This document shows, piece after piece, positions 50,264 through 64,000 of a stretch of DNA of 64,000 bases. Within the stretch, counting starts at the first letter, position 1. Each line of letters opens with the position of its first letter. The stretch comes from Longimicrobiales bacterium. GTDB taxonomy: Bacteria; Gemmatimonadota; Gemmatimonadetes; Longimicrobiales; Gaopeijiaceae. The DNA lies in the NCBI GenBank assembly GCA_965197725.1, contig CBDANQ010000061.1, forward strand, positions 192,001 through 256,000, written 5' to 3'. Below the pieces are notes generated by a model. The model saw only the letters and a program-made list of their open reading frames with translations, was not told the origin of the DNA and did not search any database. Both the position numbers and the translations under genes were made by a program.

Positions 50264-50893
50264 TTAGTGTCCCTCGGACTGTGCCTTAAGGTGCTCGACG
50301 ATCTTTGGCACTTCGGTTGGAGCCACGTTCTCGTAGTAGCGCGAGTTGATCTGGACGCAGGTCGGAAAGCCGCACGCCGCGAGGCACTCGGAGGTCTCAC
50401 CCAACTCGGTGTCGGTGTAGCACAGAAACGCCTCGACCACGTCGTCGGCGCCGCACAGGCTGCACGAGATGTTCGTGCATACCTGGACCAGATGCCGGCC
50501 GACCGGTCGCTTGTTGTACATCGTGTAGAACGTCGTGACCCCACGAACGTAGGCCCGGGGCAGCTCGAGCAACTCGGCGACTCGATCCATCGATTCGGGG
50601 CTCACGTATCCTCGCAGCTCTTGCGCAAGTGCGAGTGCGGGCAGTAAAGCCGCCTGCCTATCCGGATAGCGGGTCAGGATCTTGTCGAACCTGTCCAGAT
50701 ACTCTCCCTCGAAGAGCTGCGCCTCGGGATTCGTTTCGGACAGCATGAAAGGCATCGTCCCCGCTCCCGAGGCATGTCCACCGTGCTTCGGACGCACACC
50801 GACGAAGTCGTCGCCCCGGACCTGCTCTTCCGTGAGATCGAACTCGCCGCTATTGCCGGCCCATCCGGGGTTCCTGAACGGAACGTCGCTCAC
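50264..50893 (-). CDS. nuoE: NADH-quinone oxidoreductase subunit E (internal ~10-aa deletion)
   Basis: TFYTMY, CTNISC...ECLAAC; GTG start overlapping the nuoD stop. Confidence 0.82.
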   Translation of the reverse strand: MSDVPFRNPGWAGNSGEFDLTEEQVRGDDFVGVRPKHGGHASGAGTMPFMLSETNPEAQLFEGEYLDRFDKILTRYPDRQAALLPALALAQELRGYVSPESMDRVAELLELPRAYVRGVTTFYTMYNKRPVGRHLVQVCTNISCSLCGADDVVEAFLCYTDTELGETSECLAACGFPTCVQINSRYYENVAPTEVPKIVEHLKAQSEGH

Positions 50894-52172
50894 CGATCGA
50901 TCTCCCCGAGCACGATGTCGAGGCTCGCGTTGATCATGATCAGATCGGAAAGCAGATGACCCTCGGCAAGCTTCGCGATTACCGACAGGTTGACGAACGA
51001 GGGCGGGCGCACGCGCCAGCGTACTGGCTTGGTGCCCCCTTCTTCCGCCACCAAATACATGCCGAGCTCGCCCTTGGAGCCTTCGATCGCGAAGTAGCAG
51101 TCGCCCTCGGGCGCCCGAATCCCGTCGGTGATCACCTTGAAGTGATGGATCATGCTCTCCATGTCGGACATCGTGTCCGTCTTGGAGGGCAGCGAGATGT
51201 TCGGGTCCTCGACGTTGATGGGTCCGTCCGGCAAACGCTCGAGCGCCTGGCGGAGGATGCCCACGCTCTGCTCCATCTCTTCCATGCGGCACAGATAACG
51301 GTCGTAGCAGTCCCCGTGCTCTCCGATCGGTATCTCGAAGTCGTAGGTCTCGTAGTCGTAGTACGGCCGGTCCCTACGCACGTCGTAGTCGACGCCGGCG
51401 GCGCGCAGGTTCGGTCCCGTGAAGCCGCAGTTGATGGCGTCTGGGCCGTTGATCCCGCCTATTTCCTTGCGTACGCCCAATGTGGATCTGATTCCCGGTA
51501 AGGAGGTGGTGTACCTCCGCGAGCGTGTTTGGGAACGTGTCCAGGAACTCGCGCAGCGCGTCGGTCCACCCCTCCGGAAGATCCGCCATCATCCCCGCCG
51601 ACGCGCGTGGCCGACGTCGTGATGCGGGCCCCCGTAAGCGACTCGTGCAGCTTGTAGATGCGTTCCCGTTCCTGGAAGGAGTACAGAAACGGTGTAAACG
51701 CACCTACGTCGATGGCGGTCGTACCGAGCCAGAGCAGATGCCCGAAAATCCGGTCCATCTCCATGAGAATCACGCGGACGACCTTGCACCGTTCGGTGAC
51801 CTCGATGCCCATGAGTTTCTCGACGGACATCACGTAGGCGCAGTTATAGATCAGCGGCGCCAGATAATCCATGCGATCCGTGAGCGTGACGATCTGATTC
51901 CACGTGCGGTACTCGCCGAGCTTCTCGAAGGAAGAGTGCAGATACCCGATGTGCGGGACGACCTTCTTCACAGTCTCGCCGTCGAGCTCGCAGACCAACC
52001 GGAGCACGCCGTGCGTGGCCGGATGCTGCGGCCCGATGTTGATGAGCATGTGCTCGGTGCTCAGGTCCGGCTCGGCGATGTCGAACGGAGCGATCGGGCT
52101 GAGTGCGGGGTTTCCATCCACCCCCATCTCACGCCCGCGCCCGACTTCGAGCTCTATCGTCTTCCGCGCCAT
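50890..52172 (-). pseudogene. nuoD: NADH-quinone oxidoreductase subunit D with two +1 frameshifts
   Basis: GPQHPATHGVLR in frame 1; MMADLPEGW... in frame 2 after the G run at 51593-51596; GFTGPNLRA...DIVLGEIDR in frame 3 after the A run at 51462-51464. Confidence 0.88.
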
Positions 52173-55519: not shown

Positions 55520-56077
55520 GTGACAACGTCGTCAACGTTGTACGGAATCGGGGTGGCCGCGCTGGCCATCGTTTCCACCGGGTGCGTTTCCTACATCCCC
55601 ACCGAGCTAGAGACCGTGGCGGCGGGTGCGGACGTGCGGGTCTACCTGACGCCTGAAAGAATGGCGGAGCTTAGGGCAGTTGACGAGCTAGGCCTGCCGC
55701 AGGAGGCGGCTTCTACTTTGCTCAACGGCACCCTCGTGCGACGGGGCGGCGCTGGACTCGGCCTCAGGATCCCGATTGCAAGCCGTGAGATCGGGTTTCT
55801 AAGGAGCCCGATCCTCCGAGAGCTCAACATTTCTCCAAGCGACATTCTCCGAATCCAGCTGCGGGAGCTTGATCGGGGCAGGAGTGCGCTGGCCATAGCC
55901 GGCTCCGCAGGACTTCTGGCAGCCTTGCTGGTCGCCATGCTCAGCGGAGCAGAGAATAGGGTGCCGCCGTCATCCGGGCCGGATCCAGAGGCCAGCCGCA
56001 TTCCCCTTTTGCTCTCCTCGCTGTTTCAGCTGTTTCACATAGGCGATCCGAGTCGGAGCTTTCCGGCAATCAGGTAG
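55520..56077 (+). CDS. Hypothetical lipoprotein with C-terminal hydrophobic segment
   Basis: Signal peptide with lipobox STGC; 185-aa ORF. Confidence 0.6.
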   Translation: MTTSSTLYGIGVAALAIVSTGCVSYIPTELETVAAGADVRVYLTPERMAELRAVDELGLPQEAASTLLNGTLVRRGGAGLGLRIPIASREIGFLRSPILRELNISPSDILRIQLRELDRGRSALAIAGSAGLLAALLVAMLSGAENRVPPSSGPDPEASRIPLLLSSLFQLFHIGDPSRSFPAIR

Positions 56078-56094
56078 GCTACTCGACGCTACCG

Positions 56095-56127
56095 AACGGC
56101 CCCCCTGGATGATCCAGGGGGGCCGTT
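56095..56127. repeat. 33-bp perfect palindrome, copy A (possible terminator)
   Basis: AACGGCCCCCCTGGAT-G-ATCCAGGGGGGCCGTT. Confidence 0.85.
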
Positions 56128-56217: not shown

Positions 56218-57960
56218 TCAGCACGTTATGCACATGTGGTTGTTCCTGACACCTATGCCCTCGAGCAGCGCGATGGTCTCCGGATAGGGCTGCGTGCGCT
56301 GCATGGGGCCGTTGGCCACGTCCACCGTGGTCCGTCCCCGGCGGTCCACAGCGAACGGATCGGCGCCTTGTTCCAACAGGTACAGGACCATCTCATTGTC
56401 GCCCCTGGACGCTGCATTGTGGAGCGGCGTCATGCCGTAGTAGTCCGGCTGAAGTACGTCGGCGCCCAACTCCTCTACCAGGTACTTCACGGCCGCGATC
56501 CAGCCATTCTCCACATGCCGGTGGGCGTTACCCACCCAGGCATCGGCGTACGAATATCCTGTGACCACGTTGATGGGGAAGACCGCGGGCGCCCCGACGG
56601 GCACCTCCGCCACGTCCACTGTCGGTGGCGGGTAGCTGAGGAACGCCGCATCGCGGGCCCTGCGGCGGCCCGCGGGTCTCTTGATCGGGATATGCGGGTC
56701 GGCTCCGGACCGGACCAGCAGCTTCATGGCGTCCACGTCCAGGGCATGAGCCGCCCGTATGAACGCTGTCGCACCCACCCAGTCGAGCCGTAGGAGGTTG
56801 GCGCCCAGTTCCATGTGCCAGATGTTGTACTCGAGACGCGCGTTCACATCCGCCCCAGCCTCCAGCAGCGCTTCCATGAGCTCCAGATAAGTCGTCTGCT
56901 GCTGCAGGTGTGCCGCTGAATGAGGAAACTTGCCCTCCGGCAGCCACTGGCGGCTGATCGTGGCAAAAAGCGGGTTGTCACCCGACGCACTGACCAGGTT
57001 GGGATCCGCACCCCGCTCCAGCAGCATCATCGCGATATTAAACTGGCCGTTGATCGCCGCCATCAGAAGGGGAGAGCTATGGTCTCCGGCAGTCACGTGG
57101 TTGACATCGGCACCCCCAGCCAGGAGGGCCTTGACCGCCTCGATGTTTCCGTCCCGGGCGGCGACGGTGAGCGCTGTCAGACCGCCGTAATCGCCGATCC
57201 AGTCCGTCATCCTCATGACCGGAAGAGCACCGGCACCAGGCAGATCGGGCAGTGAGTCCCTCCCCCTGAGCGAACCCCGACCGCCACGACCCTGCGAGGA
57301 AGAACCGGGGAATTCCGCCAGGCCCAACCTCTCGTTGCGCGCCTTCTGCTCCGCTCTGTCGCCCTCGTTGCGCGCGGCGATGTCGATCACGCGCCCGGTG
57401 ACCACCGGGTCGGCACCGCTATGGAGCAGCGCCGTGACCGCCTCGGCCCGGTTCTTCGCGGCCGCAAAGATCAGCGGCGTGTGCCCCCACACGCTCTCCG
57501 TCTTGTCCAGCTCAGCACCGTGTTCCACCAGCGCTTTGATGGCCTCCACGTCGCCGGCAGCAGCGGAAAAATGCAGGGCCGAGACCCCACCCGTCGAGGT
57601 CAGGGCGTTAACGTCGACGCCCGCAGCCAGCAGCGACTTCAACACCTCTGCATGCCCTTCCCTACTGGCCAGATGCAGCGGCGTATAACTGCCGAGGCGT
57701 GTCTGAGCGTCCACGCCAGCACCGGCGTAGATCAGGATCTCCGCTGTCTCGACATCGCCGTTCACCGCCGCCCAGTGGAGCGCGGTCATGCCATCGCCCT
57801 GGGCCGCGTTCACGTCTGCGCCATGCTTGAGCAGCGAGCGCACTGACTCCACATCGCCTCTCATGGCCGCGTCTGCCACCGGGGAATCCGGAGCCATGGC
57901 CCACAACACCCCCGTCAGAGCCAGAGCCGCGGTCACGTTCACGCGCAAGGTGTTGCTCAT
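56218..57960 (-). CDS. Secreted ankyrin-repeat protein, paralog 1 (C-terminal CITC)
   Basis: Signal peptide; multiple G.T(A/P)LH.A...LL..GAD repeats. Confidence 0.9.
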   Translation of the reverse strand: MSNTLRVNVTAALALTGVLWAMAPDSPVADAAMRGDVESVRSLLKHGADVNAAQGDGMTALHWAAVNGDVETAEILIYAGAGVDAQTRLGSYTPLHLASREGHAEVLKSLLAAGVDVNALTSTGGVSALHFSAAAGDVEAIKALVEHGAELDKTESVWGHTPLIFAAAKNRAEAVTALLHSGADPVVTGRVIDIAARNEGDRAEQKARNERLGLAEFPGSSSQGRGGRGSLRGRDSLPDLPGAGALPVMRMTDWIGDYGGLTALTVAARDGNIEAVKALLAGGADVNHVTAGDHSSPLLMAAINGQFNIAMMLLERGADPNLVSASGDNPLFATISRQWLPEGKFPHSAAHLQQQTTYLELMEALLEAGADVNARLEYNIWHMELGANLLRLDWVGATAFIRAAHALDVDAMKLLVRSGADPHIPIKRPAGRRRARDAAFLSYPPPTVDVAEVPVGAPAVFPINVVTGYSYADAWVGNAHRHVENGWIAAVKYLVEELGADVLQPDYYGMTPLHNAASRGDNEMVLYLLEQGADPFAVDRRGRTTVDVANGPMQRTQPYPETIALLEGIGVRNNHMCITC

Positions 57961-58064
57961 CCTACGCCTCCTCTTGGGCCAGGGACATCACTCGACTCCG
58001 TGGCGACGCGCTGCCCGTGAGACTCCTGGATGCCGGGCGCAACGCCAGCATGCACGTCGCATTT

Positions 58065-58093
58065 ACTTTAGATCCACGGTCCTGTCGCCGCAA
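58065..58093 (-). promoter_or_regulatory. sigma70-like promoter for ankyrin paralog 1
   Basis: Minus strand TTGCGG-N17-TAAAGT, conserved in the sister spacer. Confidence 0.55.
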
Positions 58094-58266
58094 TGCTAAA
58101 GGTTCGGATCCCTGGCGTCGGCCTGAAGCCGCGCAACGAGAGTCAGCGACCACTGTTGCCGCAGCACGCTCGGCATTGCCCGGTTCTGGAGGCCGGCAGC
58201 GGGACAGGCCCTCATTACACCCGCCAGAGCCGGGCTCATCGTGACGAGAAGCGGCGTACGCTACCG

Positions 58267-58299
58267 AACGGCCCCCCTGGATGATCCAGGGGGGCCGTT
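58267..58299. repeat. 33-bp perfect palindrome, copy B
   Basis: Identical to 56095-56127. Confidence 0.85.
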
Positions 58300-58393
58300 G
58301 GCCTTCCACTCTGTCGGTACCGGCCCCTATTCTATGGCACGATCTATGGCACGCCCATCGCCATCGACGGTGATCCCGTCTCACATCCAGCGG

Positions 58394-60133
58394 TCAGCAC
58401 GTAAGGCACATGTGGTTGTTCCTGACACCCATGCCCTCGAGCAGCGCCATGGTCTCCGGGTAGGGCTGCATGCGCTGATGGGGGCCGTTGGCCACGTCCA
58501 CCGTGGTCCGTCCCCGACGGTCAAAAGCGTGCGGATCGGCGCCTTGTTTCAATAGGTACAGGACCATCTCATTGTCGCCCCTGGACGCTGCATTGTGGAG
58601 CGGCGTCATGCCGTAGTAGTCCGGCTGAAGCACGTCGGCGCCCAACTCCTCTACCAGGTACTTCACGGCCGGCATCCAGCCATTCTCCACATGCCGGTGG
58701 GCGTTACCCACAAAGGAATCGGCGTACGAATATCCTGTGACCACGTGGATGGGGAAGACTCCCGGCGCCCCGATGGGCACCTCCTCCAGCTGCTCCACTC
58801 CATCTTGCTGGTAGTTGAAGGACGTCGCATCGCGGGCCCCGCGGCGGCGCGCAGGTCTCTTGATCGCGATATGCGGGTCGGCTCCGGACCGGACCAGCAG
58901 CTTCATGGCGTCCACGTCCAGGGCATGAGCCGCCCGTATGAACGCTGTCGCACCCACCCAGTCGAGCCGTAGGAGGTTGGCGCCCAGTTCCATGTGCCAG
59001 ATGTTATACTCGAGACGCGCGTTCACATCCGCCCCAGCCTCCAGCAGCGCTTCCATGAGCTCCAGATGAGTCGTCTGCTGCTGCAGGTGCGCCGCTGAAT
59101 GAGGGAACTTGCCCTCCGGCAGCCACTGGCGGCTGATCGTGGCAAAAAGCGGGTTGTCACCCGACGCACTGACCAGGTTGGGATCCGCACCCCGCTCCAG
59201 CAGCATCATCGCGATACCGAACTGGCCGTTGATCGCCGCCATCAGAAGGGGGGAGCTATGGTCTCCGGCAGTCACCTGGTTGATGTCGGCGCCCCCATCC
59301 AGGAGGGCCTCGACCGTCTCAACGCTTCCGTCCCGGGCGGCGACGGTGAGCGCTGTCAGACCGCCGTAATCGCCGATCCAGTCCGGCATCCTCATGACCG
59401 GAAGAACACCGGCACCAGGCAGATCGGGCGTTGAGTCCCTCCGCGAACCCCGACCGCCACGACCCTGCGCGGAAGAACCAGGAAACGCATCCAGGCCCAA
59501 CCTCTCGTTGCGCGCCTTCTGCTCCGCTCTGTCGCCCTCGTTGCGCGCGGCGATGTCGATCACGCGCCCGGTGACCACCGGGTCGGCACCGCTATGGAGC
59601 AGCGCCGTGACCGCCTCGGCCCGGTTCTTCGCGGCCGCAAAGATCAGCGGTGTGTGCCCCCAAACGCTCTCCGTCTTGTCCAGCTCGGCACCGTGTTCCA
59701 CCAGCGCTTTGATGGCCTCCACGTCGCCGGCAGCAGCGGAAAAATGCAGGGCCGCTACCCCACCCGTCGAGGTCAGGGCGTTAACGTCGACGCCCGCAGC
59801 CAGCAGCGACTTCAACACCTCTGCATGCCCTTCCCTGCTGGCCAGATGCAGCGGCGTATAACTGCCGAGGCGTGTCTGAGCGTCCACGCCAGCACCGGCG
59901 TAGATCAGGATCTCCGCCGTCTCGACATCGCCGTTCACCGCCGCCCAGTGGAGCGCGGTCATGCCATCGCCCTGGGCCGCGTTCACGTCTGCGCCATGCT
60001 TGAGCAGCGAGCGCACTGACTCCACATCGCCTCTCATGGCCGCGTCCGCCACCGGGGAATCCGGAGCCATGGCCCACAACACCCCCGTCAGAGCCAGAGC
60101 CGCGGTCACGTTCACGCGCAAGGTGTTGCTCAT
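58394..60133 (-). CDS. Secreted ankyrin-repeat protein, paralog 2 (C-terminal CLTC)
   Basis: As paralog 1; N-terminal ~210 aa near-identical. Confidence 0.9.
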   Translation of the reverse strand: MSNTLRVNVTAALALTGVLWAMAPDSPVADAAMRGDVESVRSLLKHGADVNAAQGDGMTALHWAAVNGDVETAEILIYAGAGVDAQTRLGSYTPLHLASREGHAEVLKSLLAAGVDVNALTSTGGVAALHFSAAAGDVEAIKALVEHGAELDKTESVWGHTPLIFAAAKNRAEAVTALLHSGADPVVTGRVIDIAARNEGDRAEQKARNERLGLDAFPGSSAQGRGGRGSRRDSTPDLPGAGVLPVMRMPDWIGDYGGLTALTVAARDGSVETVEALLDGGADINQVTAGDHSSPLLMAAINGQFGIAMMLLERGADPNLVSASGDNPLFATISRQWLPEGKFPHSAAHLQQQTTHLELMEALLEAGADVNARLEYNIWHMELGANLLRLDWVGATAFIRAAHALDVDAMKLLVRSGADPHIAIKRPARRRGARDATSFNYQQDGVEQLEEVPIGAPGVFPIHVVTGYSYADSFVGNAHRHVENGWMPAVKYLVEELGADVLQPDYYGMTPLHNAASRGDNEMVLYLLKQGADPHAFDRRGRTTVDVANGPHQRMQPYPETMALLEGMGVRNNHMCLTC

Positions 60134-60237
60134 CCTACGCCTCCTCTTCGGCCAGGAACATCACTCGACTCCGTGGCGACGCGCTCCCCGTGAAACTCGT
60201 GGATGCCGGGGGCAACGCCAGAATCCACATTGCATCT

Positions 60238-60266
60238 ATGTTAGATTCACGGTCCTGTCGCCGCAA
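60238..60266 (-). promoter_or_regulatory. sigma70-like promoter for ankyrin paralog 2
   Basis: Minus strand TTGCGG-N17-TAACAT. Confidence 0.55.
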
Positions 60267-60331
60267 TGCTACGCGCGATCACCACCCGCCAGAGCCGGGC
60301 TCATCGTGACGAGAAGCGGCGTACGCTACCG

Positions 60332-60364
60332 AACGGCCCCCCTGGATGATCCAGGGGGGCCGTT
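60332..60364. repeat. 33-bp perfect palindrome, copy C
   Basis: Identical to 56095-56127. Confidence 0.85.
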
Positions 60365-60469
60365 GGCCTTCCACTCTGTCGGTACCGGCCCCTATTCTAT
60401 GGCACGTCTATGGCACGATCTATGGCACGCCCATCGCCATCGACGGTGATCCCGTCTCACATCCAGCGG

Positions 60470-62179
60470 TCAGCACGTGACGCAAGTGTGGTTGTTCTTG
60501 ACACCCATGCCCTCGAGCAGCGCCATGGTCTCCGGGTAGGGCCGCGTGCGCTGCACGGGGCCGTTGGCCACGTCCACCGTGGTCCGTCCCCGGCGGTCTA
60601 CAGCGAACGGATCGGCGCCATGCTTCAACAGGTACAGGACCATCTCATTGTCGCCCCTGGACGCCGCATTGTGGAGCGGCGTCATGCCGTAGTAGTCCGG
60701 CTGAAGCACGTCGGCGCCCAACTCCTCTACTAGGTACTTCACGGCCGGCATCCAGCCATTCTCCACATGCCGGTGGGCGTTACCCACCCAGCCATCGGCG
60801 TACGCATGTCCTGTGGCCACGTGGATGGGGAATATTCCCGGCGCCCCGACGGGCACCGGCTCCACGTCCACTTTGATCTGGTTCAACCAGTGGGGCTCGC
60901 CGGCCGTCACCGGGTTGGGGTCGCCCGCGGGTCTCTTGATCGCGATATGCGGGTCGGCTCCGGACCGGACCAGCAGCTTCATGGCGTCCACGTCCAGGGC
61001 ATGAGCCGCCCGTAGGAACGCTGTCGCACCCACCCAGTCGAGCCGTAGGAGGTCGGCGCCCAGTTCCATGTGCCAGATGTTGTACTCGAGACGCGCGTTC
61101 ACATCCGCCCCAGCCTCCAGCATCGCTTCCATGAGCTCCAGATGAGTCGTCTGCTGCTGCAGGTGCGCCGCTGAATGAGGGAACTTGCCCTCCGGCAGCC
61201 ACTGGCGGCTGATCGTGGCAAAAAGCGGGTTGTCACCCGACTCACTGACCAGGTTGGGATCCGCACCCCGCTCCAGCAGCATCATCGCGATACCGAACTG
61301 GCCGTTGATCGCCGCCATCAGAAGGGGGGAGCTATGGTCTCCGGCAGTCACGTGGTTGACATCGGCACCCCCAGCCAGGAGGGCCTTGACCGTCTCAACG
61401 CTTCCGTCCCGGGCGGCGACGGTGAGCGCTGTCAGACCACCGTAATCGCCGATCCAGTCCGTCATCCTCATGACCGGAAGAGCACCTGCACCAGGAGGAT
61501 CGGGCACGGCGTCCCTGTACGACCGGTACACCGGCGTCAGGCCCAACCTCTCGTTGCGCGCCTTCTGCTCCGCTCTGTCGCCCTCGTTGCGCGCGGCGAT
61601 GTCGATCACGCGCCCGGTGACCACCGGGTCGGCACCGCTATGGAGCAGCGCCGTGACCGCCTCGGCCCGGTTCTTCGCGGCCGCAAAGATCAGCGGTGTG
61701 TGCCCCCAAACGCTCTCCGTCTTGTCCAGCTCGGCACCGTGTTCCACCAGCGCTTTGATGGCCTCCACGTCGCCGGCAGCAGCGGAAAAATGCAGGGCCG
61801 CTACCCCACCCGTCGAGGTCAGGGCGTTAACGTCGACGCCCGCAGCCAGCAGCGACTTCAACACCTCTGCATGCCCTTCCCTGCTGGCCAGATGCAGCGG
61901 CGTATAACTGCCGAGGCGCGTCTGAGCGTCCACGCCAGCACCGGCGTAGATCAGGATCTCCGCCGTCTCGACATCGCCGTTCACCGCCGCCCAGTGGAGC
62001 GCGGTCATGCCATCGCCCTGGGCCGCGTTCACGTCTGCGCCATGCTTGAGCAGCGAGCGCACTGACTCCACATCGCCTCTCATGGCCGCGTCTGCCACCG
62101 GGGAATCCGGAGCCATGGCCCACAACACCCCCGTCAGAGCCAGAGCCGCGGTCACGTTCACGCGCAAGGTGTTGCTCAT
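60470..62179 (-). CDS. Secreted ankyrin-repeat protein, paralog 3 (C-terminal CVTC), translationally coupled to DUF1552 gene
   Basis: ATGA overlap with the upstream gene; ankyrin repeats. Confidence 0.9.
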   Translation of the reverse strand: MSNTLRVNVTAALALTGVLWAMAPDSPVADAAMRGDVESVRSLLKHGADVNAAQGDGMTALHWAAVNGDVETAEILIYAGAGVDAQTRLGSYTPLHLASREGHAEVLKSLLAAGVDVNALTSTGGVAALHFSAAAGDVEAIKALVEHGAELDKTESVWGHTPLIFAAAKNRAEAVTALLHSGADPVVTGRVIDIAARNEGDRAEQKARNERLGLTPVYRSYRDAVPDPPGAGALPVMRMTDWIGDYGGLTALTVAARDGSVETVKALLAGGADVNHVTAGDHSSPLLMAAINGQFGIAMMLLERGADPNLVSESGDNPLFATISRQWLPEGKFPHSAAHLQQQTTHLELMEAMLEAGADVNARLEYNIWHMELGADLLRLDWVGATAFLRAAHALDVDAMKLLVRSGADPHIAIKRPAGDPNPVTAGEPHWLNQIKVDVEPVPVGAPGIFPIHVATGHAYADGWVGNAHRHVENGWMPAVKYLVEELGADVLQPDYYGMTPLHNAASRGDNEMVLYLLKHGADPFAVDRRGRTTVDVANGPVQRTRPYPETMALLEGMGVKNNHTCVTC

Positions 62180-63627
62180 CCTACGCCTCCCTTTCCACCA
62201 CCACTCGATTCCGTAGCAAGGTTGCCCGTGCTGCCGAGATACAACTCGCCCGAGCTGTCGCCGAAGCCCTCCATGTCGTCCAGTCCGATCTTGTGCAGGA
62301 GGGTGAGCATCGCATTCGCCATCGGTGTCCCGTCGGAAGCCTTCACGTGCAGGTTGCCCTCCAACTGCCCGTTAGCTCCACCAAGCATGAGCAGCGGGGC
62401 CCGCCTGTGGTTGTGGATGTTCGGATCAGCCATCGGGGAGCCATACAAGATCACCGTCTTGTCCAGCAGGTGTGTGTCGCCCTCCATGTGGTCCTTCAGC
62501 TTGTCCATCAGATAGGTCAGAGTGCCCACATGGTAGCGATTGATCGTGTTCAGGTTGAGAAGGGCGTCCTCATTGTTACCATGATGCGATGCCGGATGGA
62601 ACGGGGTCTCCGTTCCGCTCTCCGGGTACACACGCCCCGTGGCGTCCCGCGACATCTTGAGCGAGAAGACCCGCGTCACATCCGACTGGAACGCCAGCAC
62701 TTGCAGGTCGTACATCAGCTTGATGTGCTGGTCGAACGAGTCGGGGACGCCCGAAGGCGCCTCGGGCAACTCCCTCATCTCGCCGCTGGTGTTACGCGCT
62801 TCGACCGCTTGGATCCGGCGCTCAAGCTCCCGTATATTCTCCAGGTACCGATCCATGCGAAGCCGGTCCTCCGCCTCAAGCTCACGCGTCAAGCGCGCCG
62901 TGTCATTCATGATCCAGTCCAGGATACTGCTACGCGACCTGCGGATCTTGGCCCGCTCCTCCGCGGTCCCACCCGCCCCGAACAGCTGATCGAACGCCAA
63001 GCGCGGATCGCGGGTCGGCGGCAGCGGCTGCGTCGGCGACGCCCAACTGGTCGCATCCGTGTACGCGCAGGCGTACTTGTATGGGCATCCGCCCGCCACA
63101 TCCACGTTCTCGATGGCCAGCTGCATCGACGGGATCGGCGAATCCTGTCCGAACCGCTGAGCGTAGTACTGGTCCAGCGACTTCCCCACGAACACGTCCG
63201 AGCTCTGCGTTTGCCTCGGATGAGACTGAGTGAGAAAGGTAGCACTCGAGCGGGGGTGGTCGCCCCCGATTTCGGACGGAGTGTACGCCTCCGCCATGCG
63301 CACGTCCGTGTTGCTGACGATGGTGAGATACTCTCGGTAGTCCTCTAACGGGCTCAGCGCGCTCAGGCTGTTGAACTCGAAGCCACGCCCTATCTGCTCA
63401 GGCGCCCACAGATACTGTTGCGCGCCCCACTCGTTGCACCCCGCCGCTCCGTGCACGTTTTCGATGCAGATGAGGCGCGTGCGGTCAATCGCCTGTGACG
63501 CCTCCGTCCACGCGCCGCGGCGGCGGCCGGCAGGCACCATGGCGTCCAGGAAGGGCAGGGCCACCGTAGCGCCCATCCCCCGCAAGAAGGTCCTCCGCGG
63601 CAGGTGCTTTGTCGTGATGAAACGCAT
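62176..63627 (-). CDS. DUF1552 family protein with Tat-like signal
   Basis: LPRRTFLRGMGATVALPFLDAM, GGDH, YACAY, PRLAFDQLFG, SILD, D.TRV, HPASHH, H.H...P. Confidence 0.8.
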   Translation of the reverse strand: MRFITTKHLPRRTFLRGMGATVALPFLDAMVPAGRRRGAWTEASQAIDRTRLICIENVHGAAGCNEWGAQQYLWAPEQIGRGFEFNSLSALSPLEDYREYLTIVSNTDVRMAEAYTPSEIGGDHPRSSATFLTQSHPRQTQSSDVFVGKSLDQYYAQRFGQDSPIPSMQLAIENVDVAGGCPYKYACAYTDATSWASPTQPLPPTRDPRLAFDQLFGAGGTAEERAKIRRSRSSILDWIMNDTARLTRELEAEDRLRMDRYLENIRELERRIQAVEARNTSGEMRELPEAPSGVPDSFDQHIKLMYDLQVLAFQSDVTRVFSLKMSRDATGRVYPESGTETPFHPASHHGNNEDALLNLNTINRYHVGTLTYLMDKLKDHMEGDTHLLDKTVILYGSPMADPNIHNHRRAPLLMLGGANGQLEGNLHVKASDGTPMANAMLTLLHKIGLDDMEGFGDSSGELYLGSTGNLATESSGGGKGGVG

Positions 63628-63655: not shown

Positions 63656-64000
63656 TTACTGTTGATTGACGTCTTGGGAACCGTCGCTCACAACTATGGG
63701 CTTCCGCTTCTGGAACGCGTCACTGCTCGCCACCCCCATGACGAAGGAGGACATGCGGTAATCATTCGCCTCGGCCGAATCAACGATCGCCCGGACGGTT
63801 GGCATGTCGTAGTACTCGACTCGACGGCCGAGGGCATAGGCCATCAGGTTCACCGTGAAGTTCCGGAGGATCGGGATCGAGAGGCCCAGCAGCGCGCTCT
63901 GCAACTCGGCCGCACTCGTCACTCGAGTGCCGTCGTACAGCTCGCCCCGAGTGTCCAGGGGCATCCCGTTCTCACGAATTCGCCACTGGCCGACCACGTC
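63656..64000 (-). CDS. C-terminus of a DUF1592/DUF1588/DUF1585-type protein (partial, runs off window)
   Basis: VGQWR..ENG.PLD..GEL.DG, NLMAYALGR, S.AFQ; usual partner upstream of DUF1552. Confidence 0.72.
   Translation of the reverse strand, partial: DVVGQWRIRENGMPLDTRGELYDGTRVTSAAELQSALLGLSIPILRNFTVNLMAYALGRRVEYYDMPTVRAIVDSAEANDYRMSSFVMGVASSDAFQKRKPIVVSDGSQDVNQQ

Follow-up and report, generated by a model that had tools for sequence, protein, structure and literature searches.

A tandem ankyrin gene array of a Longimicrobiales bacterium evolves in concert in its front half and retains distinct types in its rear part

A stretch of 64,000 nucleotides (nt) from a Longimicrobiales bacterium (contig CBDANQ010000061.1, positions 192,001 to 256,000; hereafter the window, whose numbering is used throughout) carries on its reverse strand a single gene pair, encoding a di-haem protein of the PSD/PSCyt3 family and a DUF1552 protein, followed by three tandem genes for ankyrin-repeat proteins. 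Why should one such pair be followed by several ankyrin genes that are nearly identical at one end and different at the other? Copy C (60470..62179, 569 aa) is the first after the DUF1552 gene, the stop of which it overlaps with its own start, and is followed by copies B (58394..60133, 579 aa) and A (56218..57960, 580 aa). These are the three paralogs of 569-580 aa described in an earlier reading made from the letters alone (hereafter the sequence-only reading); they were recovered in the list of open reading frames (ORFs), and all three ORFs have Pfam Ank repeats above cut-off. As that reading stated, the first ~210 residues are the same but for one, with 2-8 nt differing in ~640: residues 1-214 (a signal-like N-terminus and repeats 1-5; C 61538..62179, B 59492-60133, A 57319-57960) differ solely by S/A127, and the pairwise differences amount to 8, 8 and 2 nt in 642. 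The sequences and coordinates that it gave for two divergent loops were also confirmed. Loop 1, in the hairpin that joins repeats 5 and 6, occupies 57241..57318 (type A), 59420..59491 (type B) and 61496..61537 (type C, 12 residues shorter than type A); loop 2, in the one that joins repeats 9 and 10, occupies 56599..56676 (type A), 58775..58855 (type B) and 60851..60931 (type C).

The array was compared with the orthologous site in another species of the genus (genome G002, the sister species; the genome holding the window is G000). On a 1.87 Mb contig, G002 carries four copies in the order B-A-C-D, compared with C-B-A in G000, copy D being a loop 1 of type A joined to a new loop 2. Nine contigs of different size, from 64 kb to 3.8 Mb, each carry 2-4 copies; contig size served here as a proxy for assembly, and gene order is known for G000 and G002 only. 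Collapsed strain alleles, which the sequence-only reading had named among the outcomes that would count against it, are excluded because G002 has four reordered copies and nine distinct contigs carry 2-4. An assembly artefact in the wider sense, in which strain alleles were joined in tandem or N-termini were made alike by polishing, might be suspected from the single-base insertions that split neighbouring genes in G000, and from the loop hybrids that make up three of the five proteins from contigs shorter than 4 kb and are possible chimeras. It is nevertheless extremely improbable, as the four-copy G002 array is independent and has distinct spacers, contigs of different size carry the same types, and in each species all copies share genome-specific substitutions.

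Contigs of the runs X1 and X2 match loop 2 of A, loop 2 of B and the junction of the B end with its spacer without a single difference; these runs perhaps come from the source sample and are hence not independent. RNA-library contigs from four runs span B-specific parts, and some span A- and C-specific parts, which is not proof of transcription. Two candidate rearrangements were rejected: a third array order (RNA contig X15 record 18), which spans only the loop-1 part common to an A/B hybrid protein (P0130, see below), and a joint 57263-59450 in X3/X16 as a new hybrid, for which the sister-species B allele suffices.

The sequence-only reading called the loops hypervariable and likened the array to a small binder library. 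We aligned 34 proteins (33 listed cluster members, with 15 of 18 given for one cluster, plus one G002 copy) and found three types of loop 1 and four of loop 2, and not the many or strain-specific alleles that such a library would display. On long contigs the loop 1/loop 2 pairings are A/A, B/B, C/C and A/D, together with the within-loop A/B hybrid P0130; three other loop hybrids, present only on contigs shorter than 3 kb, were left out of the count. Loops of the same type differ between G000 and G002 by 1-13 nt, and loops of different types by 17-58, gaps being counted as differences. Across two species each loop thus exists as 3-4 fixed, nearly invariant types and is not hypervariable. No dedicated recombinase, reverse transcriptase, silent donor or single expression site was seen among the genes called near the array, and the image of a library is not supported. 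In the comparison across relatives that the sequence-only reading suggested, copy number varies from 2 to 4 across contigs, and the loop alleles are the fixed types.

Approximately unbiased (AU) tests were applied by codon segment to seven genes, three from G000 and four from G002. Codons 1-214 group by genome and type trees were rejected (AU p<1e-7), the copies differing in this segment by 2-8 nt inside G000 and 0-16 inside G002, and by 14-26 from one genome to the other. Conversely, types stay together in loop 1 and in codons 429-490, 456-490 and 491-581, where the genome tree was rejected (AU p<1e-6); for codons 241-428 the test favours neither grouping. The type-specific part thus comprises the loops and everything from codon 429 to the end, that is, the whole C-terminal third: the divergence of the two insertions reported previously is real, and its restriction to them is not. 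A converted segment that groups by species and a protected segment that groups by paralog are the pattern found in concerted evolution. In conclusion, the front half is homogenised by concerted evolution within genomes, as proposed earlier for the scaffold, probably through gene conversion; the rear part is protected, and one ancestral ankyrin copy multiplied before the split of G000 and G002.

We scored as type-defining those codons that are identical within a type in both species and different between types, using the six A, B and C genes of G000 and G002. Outside the loops there are 21 such codons, 19 replacement and 2 silent, compared with 46:45 at the other variable codons (p=0.001) and 35:23 at those within codons 241-581 (p=0.013). 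Inside the loops the ratio is 25:2, and in codons 456-476 (repeat 10 and its insertion; B 58712..58774, A 56536-56598, C 60788-60850) it is 9 to 0. An excess such as 19:2 is what selection would leave if it maintained differences between copies in the face of conversion, and this signature counts in favour of the earlier reading; the excess holds relative to other variable sites only.

Copy B was folded with an alignment of 119 sequences. The model is a 12-repeat ankyrin solenoid of 12 helix pairs (mean predicted local distance difference test score, pLDDT, 88.9), and its best Foldseek matches are repeats 13-24 of ankyrin-B (template modelling score, TM, 0.86 by target length) and designed ankyrin repeat proteins (DARPins). 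Loop 1 is placed in the repeat 5/6 hairpin and loop 2 in the repeat 9/10 hairpin. Ankyrin hairpins line the concave binding face, and the position of the array loops presumably matches the LoopDARPin design. Across 70 triads of PSD, DUF1552 and ankyrin proteins, repeats 9-12 are the least divergent part of the ankyrin family (mean distance 0.49 vs 0.65), and they bear invariant Trp, Arg, Asp, Asn and Cys residues. The array clade has lost the DPSG motif that 102 of 115 family members have in loop 2. A C-terminal CxxC is present in 160 of 162 family proteins, a twin-arginine translocation (Tat) motif in none of the 162 and a lipobox-like motif in two; by eye, the N-terminus resembles a Sec signal.

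The genes upstream of copy C are those of a recurrent module. The DUF1552 (HXXSHH) gene (62176..63627) encodes a protein with a twin-arginine-type N-terminus and a fold that may be distantly related to that of alkaline phosphatases and sulfatases, and is preceded by the PSD/PSCyt3 (DUF1587/1595/1592/1588/1585) di-haem gene, of which the 3' end (63656..64000) lies in the window and the rest beyond it; SusD and SusC genes are located further upstream, outside the window. The order PSD, DUF1552, ankyrin on one strand, found at the array locus, is the rule in 158 loci, where repeats are mostly of the whole unit. The array locus also has the motifs of the module, with two CxxCH in PSD (G002), a Tat motif in DUF1552 and the CxxC in ankyrin. 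Relatives make up at least 6890 of the 8000 candidates that were scored, and the named records belong to Gemmatimonadota, Acidobacteriota and Gammaproteobacteria. A full DUF1552 gene stands directly before 112 of 145 full-length ankyrin family genes, and a two-CxxCH protein precedes ankyrin in 122 of 125 cases. None of the 145 directly follows another full-length ankyrin gene; the cut locus L100 shows two in tandem. At the array, a single PSD/DUF1552 pair accompanies 3-4 ankyrin copies, in agreement with the one DUF1585/DUF1552 complex envisaged previously.

The ankyrin family is present in 88 of 151 genomes of the taxonomic family, and an ankyrin-only array was found in two of the 151. Matches of >90% DNA identity to the array were found in G000 and G002 only, among 5 genus genomes; across the 151 genomes, matches of >80% identity were likewise in these two only among the matches listed, 234 others being weaker. 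In a tree of 41 proteins made by a quick method, the array copies are monophyletic (100) and their sister is a single-copy syntenic locus, L113 (90). Relatives gain such variety by repeating the whole three-gene unit, and the G000/G002 lineage repeats ankyrin alone. In G000, four of six PSD loci lie within 5 kb of a SusC match, vs 2.5% of the genome, a comparison biased upward as the query came from such a cassette. The DUF1552 model (pLDDT 82.6) gave Foldseek matches that, among those listed, all belong to the alkaline phosphatase/sulfatase superfamily but are weak (expectation value 3e-5, TM 0.35-0.39, ~10% identity). Sequence searches of DUF1552 against the PDB, Pfam and a sulfatase fragment of the genome gave no enzyme link, and an ESM Atlas search returned the same families only. 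Mirror-distance correlations singled out neither DUF1552 nor PSD as the ankyrin partner.

Taken together, these results make it about an even chance (probability roughly 0.5) that the ankyrin copies serve the single di-haem/DUF1552 pair, to which they would bind, as alternative partner subunits that selection keeps distinct. Recombination between copies, by conversion or unequal exchange, would homogenise the front part, and selection would block homogenisation where the types differ functionally. The ankyrin proteins would be exported by Sec to the periplasm and dock there on the haem/DUF1552 pair, repeats 9-12 and the loops tuning which substrate or partner is handled; the substrates could plausibly be solutes imported by the adjacent SusC/SusD. 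A fuller version of this scheme is tentative: a periplasmic enzyme of di-haem and sulfatase-fold subunits, fed by SusC/SusD, might switch substrate by means of 3-4 exchangeable ankyrin partners, with conversion keeping the docking half uniform, selection guarding the substrate-facing half and recombination making new types such as copy D.

A number of observations weigh against selected partner subunits. The rate of replacement differences per site (pN) was significantly above that of silent ones (pS) in no segment (best p=0.08), 2 silent codons out of 21 are no different from the expectation under no constraint (p=0.13), and same-type loops compared across species have a pN/pS of 0.45, which is not significantly below 1 (p=0.10). 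The ratio is high in the whole operon (0.42-0.50, with DUF1552 at 0.42 and PSD at 0.50, vs 0.11 for dcd), and of the 181 positions conserved in the family the array clade deviates at 12-15, where the family median is 6; both also fit relaxed constraint. The low silent divergence of type C between species may reflect recent interspecies exchange and not long retention, and the comparison at the DNA level covers two species only. Both loops sit at ankyrin hairpin positions but have a pLDDT below 50 (residues 220-241 and 432-440 of the copy B model), and in 115 more distant family members the same positions hold low-complexity insertions that vary in length (39-126 and 21-47 residues), as tolerant linkers would. 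The type sites outside the loops, sorted by what we take to be the DARPin position classes, are not enriched at groove or insertion positions (9/118 vs 12/188, p=0.82); they cluster beside the loops, where insertions and deletions (indels) could hinder conversion.

These last points are what would be expected if the array merely supplied more of one accessory protein, the loops being linkers whose indels block conversion locally so that nearby differences persist with no functional meaning. The presence of a ribosome-binding site before each copy agrees with such dosage amplification, as does the statement, in the accessible part of a study of duplicates under gene conversion, that large indels disrupt conversion and form a neutral barrier; the same study gives divergence peaks under conversion as a mark of selection, which favours partner subunits (PMC3924837). 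We nevertheless hold this explanation to be rather unlikely. The ratio of 19:2, vs 35:23 at other sites in the same region, argues against it because a passive barrier should keep silent differences too; moreover, codons 491-581 still group by type far from any indel, and the same types were retained in two species despite reordering. Alternatively, the copies could be chaperones that assist in assembling the di-haem or metal enzyme or in loading it, the variants suiting different conditions and not substrates. The fixed place behind a two-CxxCH protein, the conserved His, Arg and Trp residues and the C-terminal CxxC are compatible with this role, and ankyrin proteins are needed for catalase activity, probably via haem binding, according to the portion of PMC7567364 available. 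The known cases, however, adjoin catalases, which are absent from the array operon, and a single client leaves little reason to keep four diverged types, which renders this role improbable.

Finally, eukaryote-like ankyrins diversified for interaction with a host or a grazer, independently of the enzyme pair, could account for the replacement-rich differences between types, and sponge-associated Gemmatimonadota are enriched in ankyrin proteins, a class reported to affect phagocytosis (PMC8163846, accessible part). That explanation is hard to credit for a family that is tied to the operon in free-living lineages from soil, freshwater and seawater, shows no sign of export beyond the periplasm and has types that are stable across species instead of changing fast. 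Alternative partner subunits of one enzyme pair remain the most probable of these readings.

A remnant of the DUF1552 3' end with its ribosome-binding site is copied before B and A (60134..60177 and 57961-58004), and a 15-bp perfect hairpin lies ~100 nt past each copy (60332..60364, 58267-58299 and 56095-56127). The repeated unit runs from ~45 nt of the DUF1552 3' end, which marks its left border, to a point after this hairpin, and every ankyrin copy in it is intact. The hairpin occurs in three places only in G000, which ruled it out as a genome-wide repetitive extragenic palindrome; no U tail follows it, and a promoter scan gave nothing above chance. On the forward strand, 58111..58203 is a fragment of a 275-aa gene with a weak DUF6065 match, the complete form of which stands between copies 1 and 2 of G002, and a small lipoprotein-like gene (55520..56077) is convergent with the array. 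The latter has an equivalent position in G002 and also adjoins the sister locus L113; it has no Pfam family and recurs near triads or SusC/SusD cassettes in seven other loci.

Other features of the G000 assembly were noted. The nuoD, PSD, SusD and SusC genes are split (window 50264-52172 and L001 7656-14780). PSD, SusD and SusC are split by single-base insertions and are whole in G002; for PSD, the insertions relative to G002 are typical of long-read error, and the two CxxCH motifs of the G002 gene appear in G000 as 1+1 across the frameshift. The silent divergence of DUF1552 (62176-63627) from G002 is patchy, 0-0.14 per 60 codons (last 3-codon bin excluded), and that of dcd is higher, 0.17; the patchy, low values hint at recombination between the two species in the operon. 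On two different contigs G000 has an ankyrin family gene that lacks a PSD/DUF1552 pair of its own upstream (C23:28541-30436 and C32:54961-56856, 99.6% identical over 2241 bp). At C58:103272-104169, next to another SusC/SusD-ankyrin cassette, there are a remnant of the array 3' end and spacer and the reverse-strand 256-aa gene found between copies 1 and 2 in G002, which suggests past exchange between cassettes. At C61:178564-182588, fragments of PSD and ankyrin, from a degraded triad, stand before an intact SusC/SusD pair, the matching G002 cassette (L030) being intact, and an insertion-sequence transposase apparently interrupts a G000 sulfatase-family gene (L193:1189-3405) and is fused to it.

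Parts of the array have known counterparts. In the main text of PMC5615132, as far as available, PSCyt3 genes of Planctomycetes and Verrucomicrobia adjoin a gene of unknown family and function; the pair has, like the array, the Pfam string DUF1587, DUF1595, DUF1592, DUF1588, DUF1585 with a DUF1552 neighbour, whereas the array adds a third, ankyrin gene, of which that text makes no mention, and multiplies it alone. The red/green opsin duplicates resemble the array in that converted parts group by species and functional parts by paralog, with replacement-rich islands (PMC3924837, same part); the array differs in being bacterial and tandem, in having 3-4 copies that reorder, and in that the function of its islands is only inferred. 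DARPins and LoopDARPins, in the sections seen of PMC4384111, share the ankyrin solenoid with extra loops, but the array has 3-4 natural types without randomisation, and its scaffold has other insertions as well and ends in a CxxC tail. AnkB and Cj1386, periplasmic accessories of catalases, are likewise exported ankyrins co-encoded with a haem protein (PMC7567364, same portion); the array partner is instead a di-haem c-type/DUF1552 pair, and the array proteins have 12 repeats with insertions and come in multiple types. Our search, which did not extend to subscription papers, found no literature treating DUF1552 together with ankyrin and no paper title on a tandem ankyrin array in Gemmatimonadota.

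What is new is the lineage-restricted expansion of a single gene, ankyrin; the evolutionary process is already known and the module is common. The array is better regarded as a useful natural experiment than as a binder library, and as a clean example, from a bacterium, of tandem copies in which selection probably resists gene conversion. The PSD-DUF1552-ankyrin module comprises thousands of uncharacterised proteins in Gemmatimonadota, Acidobacteriota and Gammaproteobacteria. By fixing the enzyme pair and varying ankyrin alone, at ~20 marked residues and two loops, the array flags the positions that matter, and it lends itself to a compact set of constructs that address the role of the third subunit directly.

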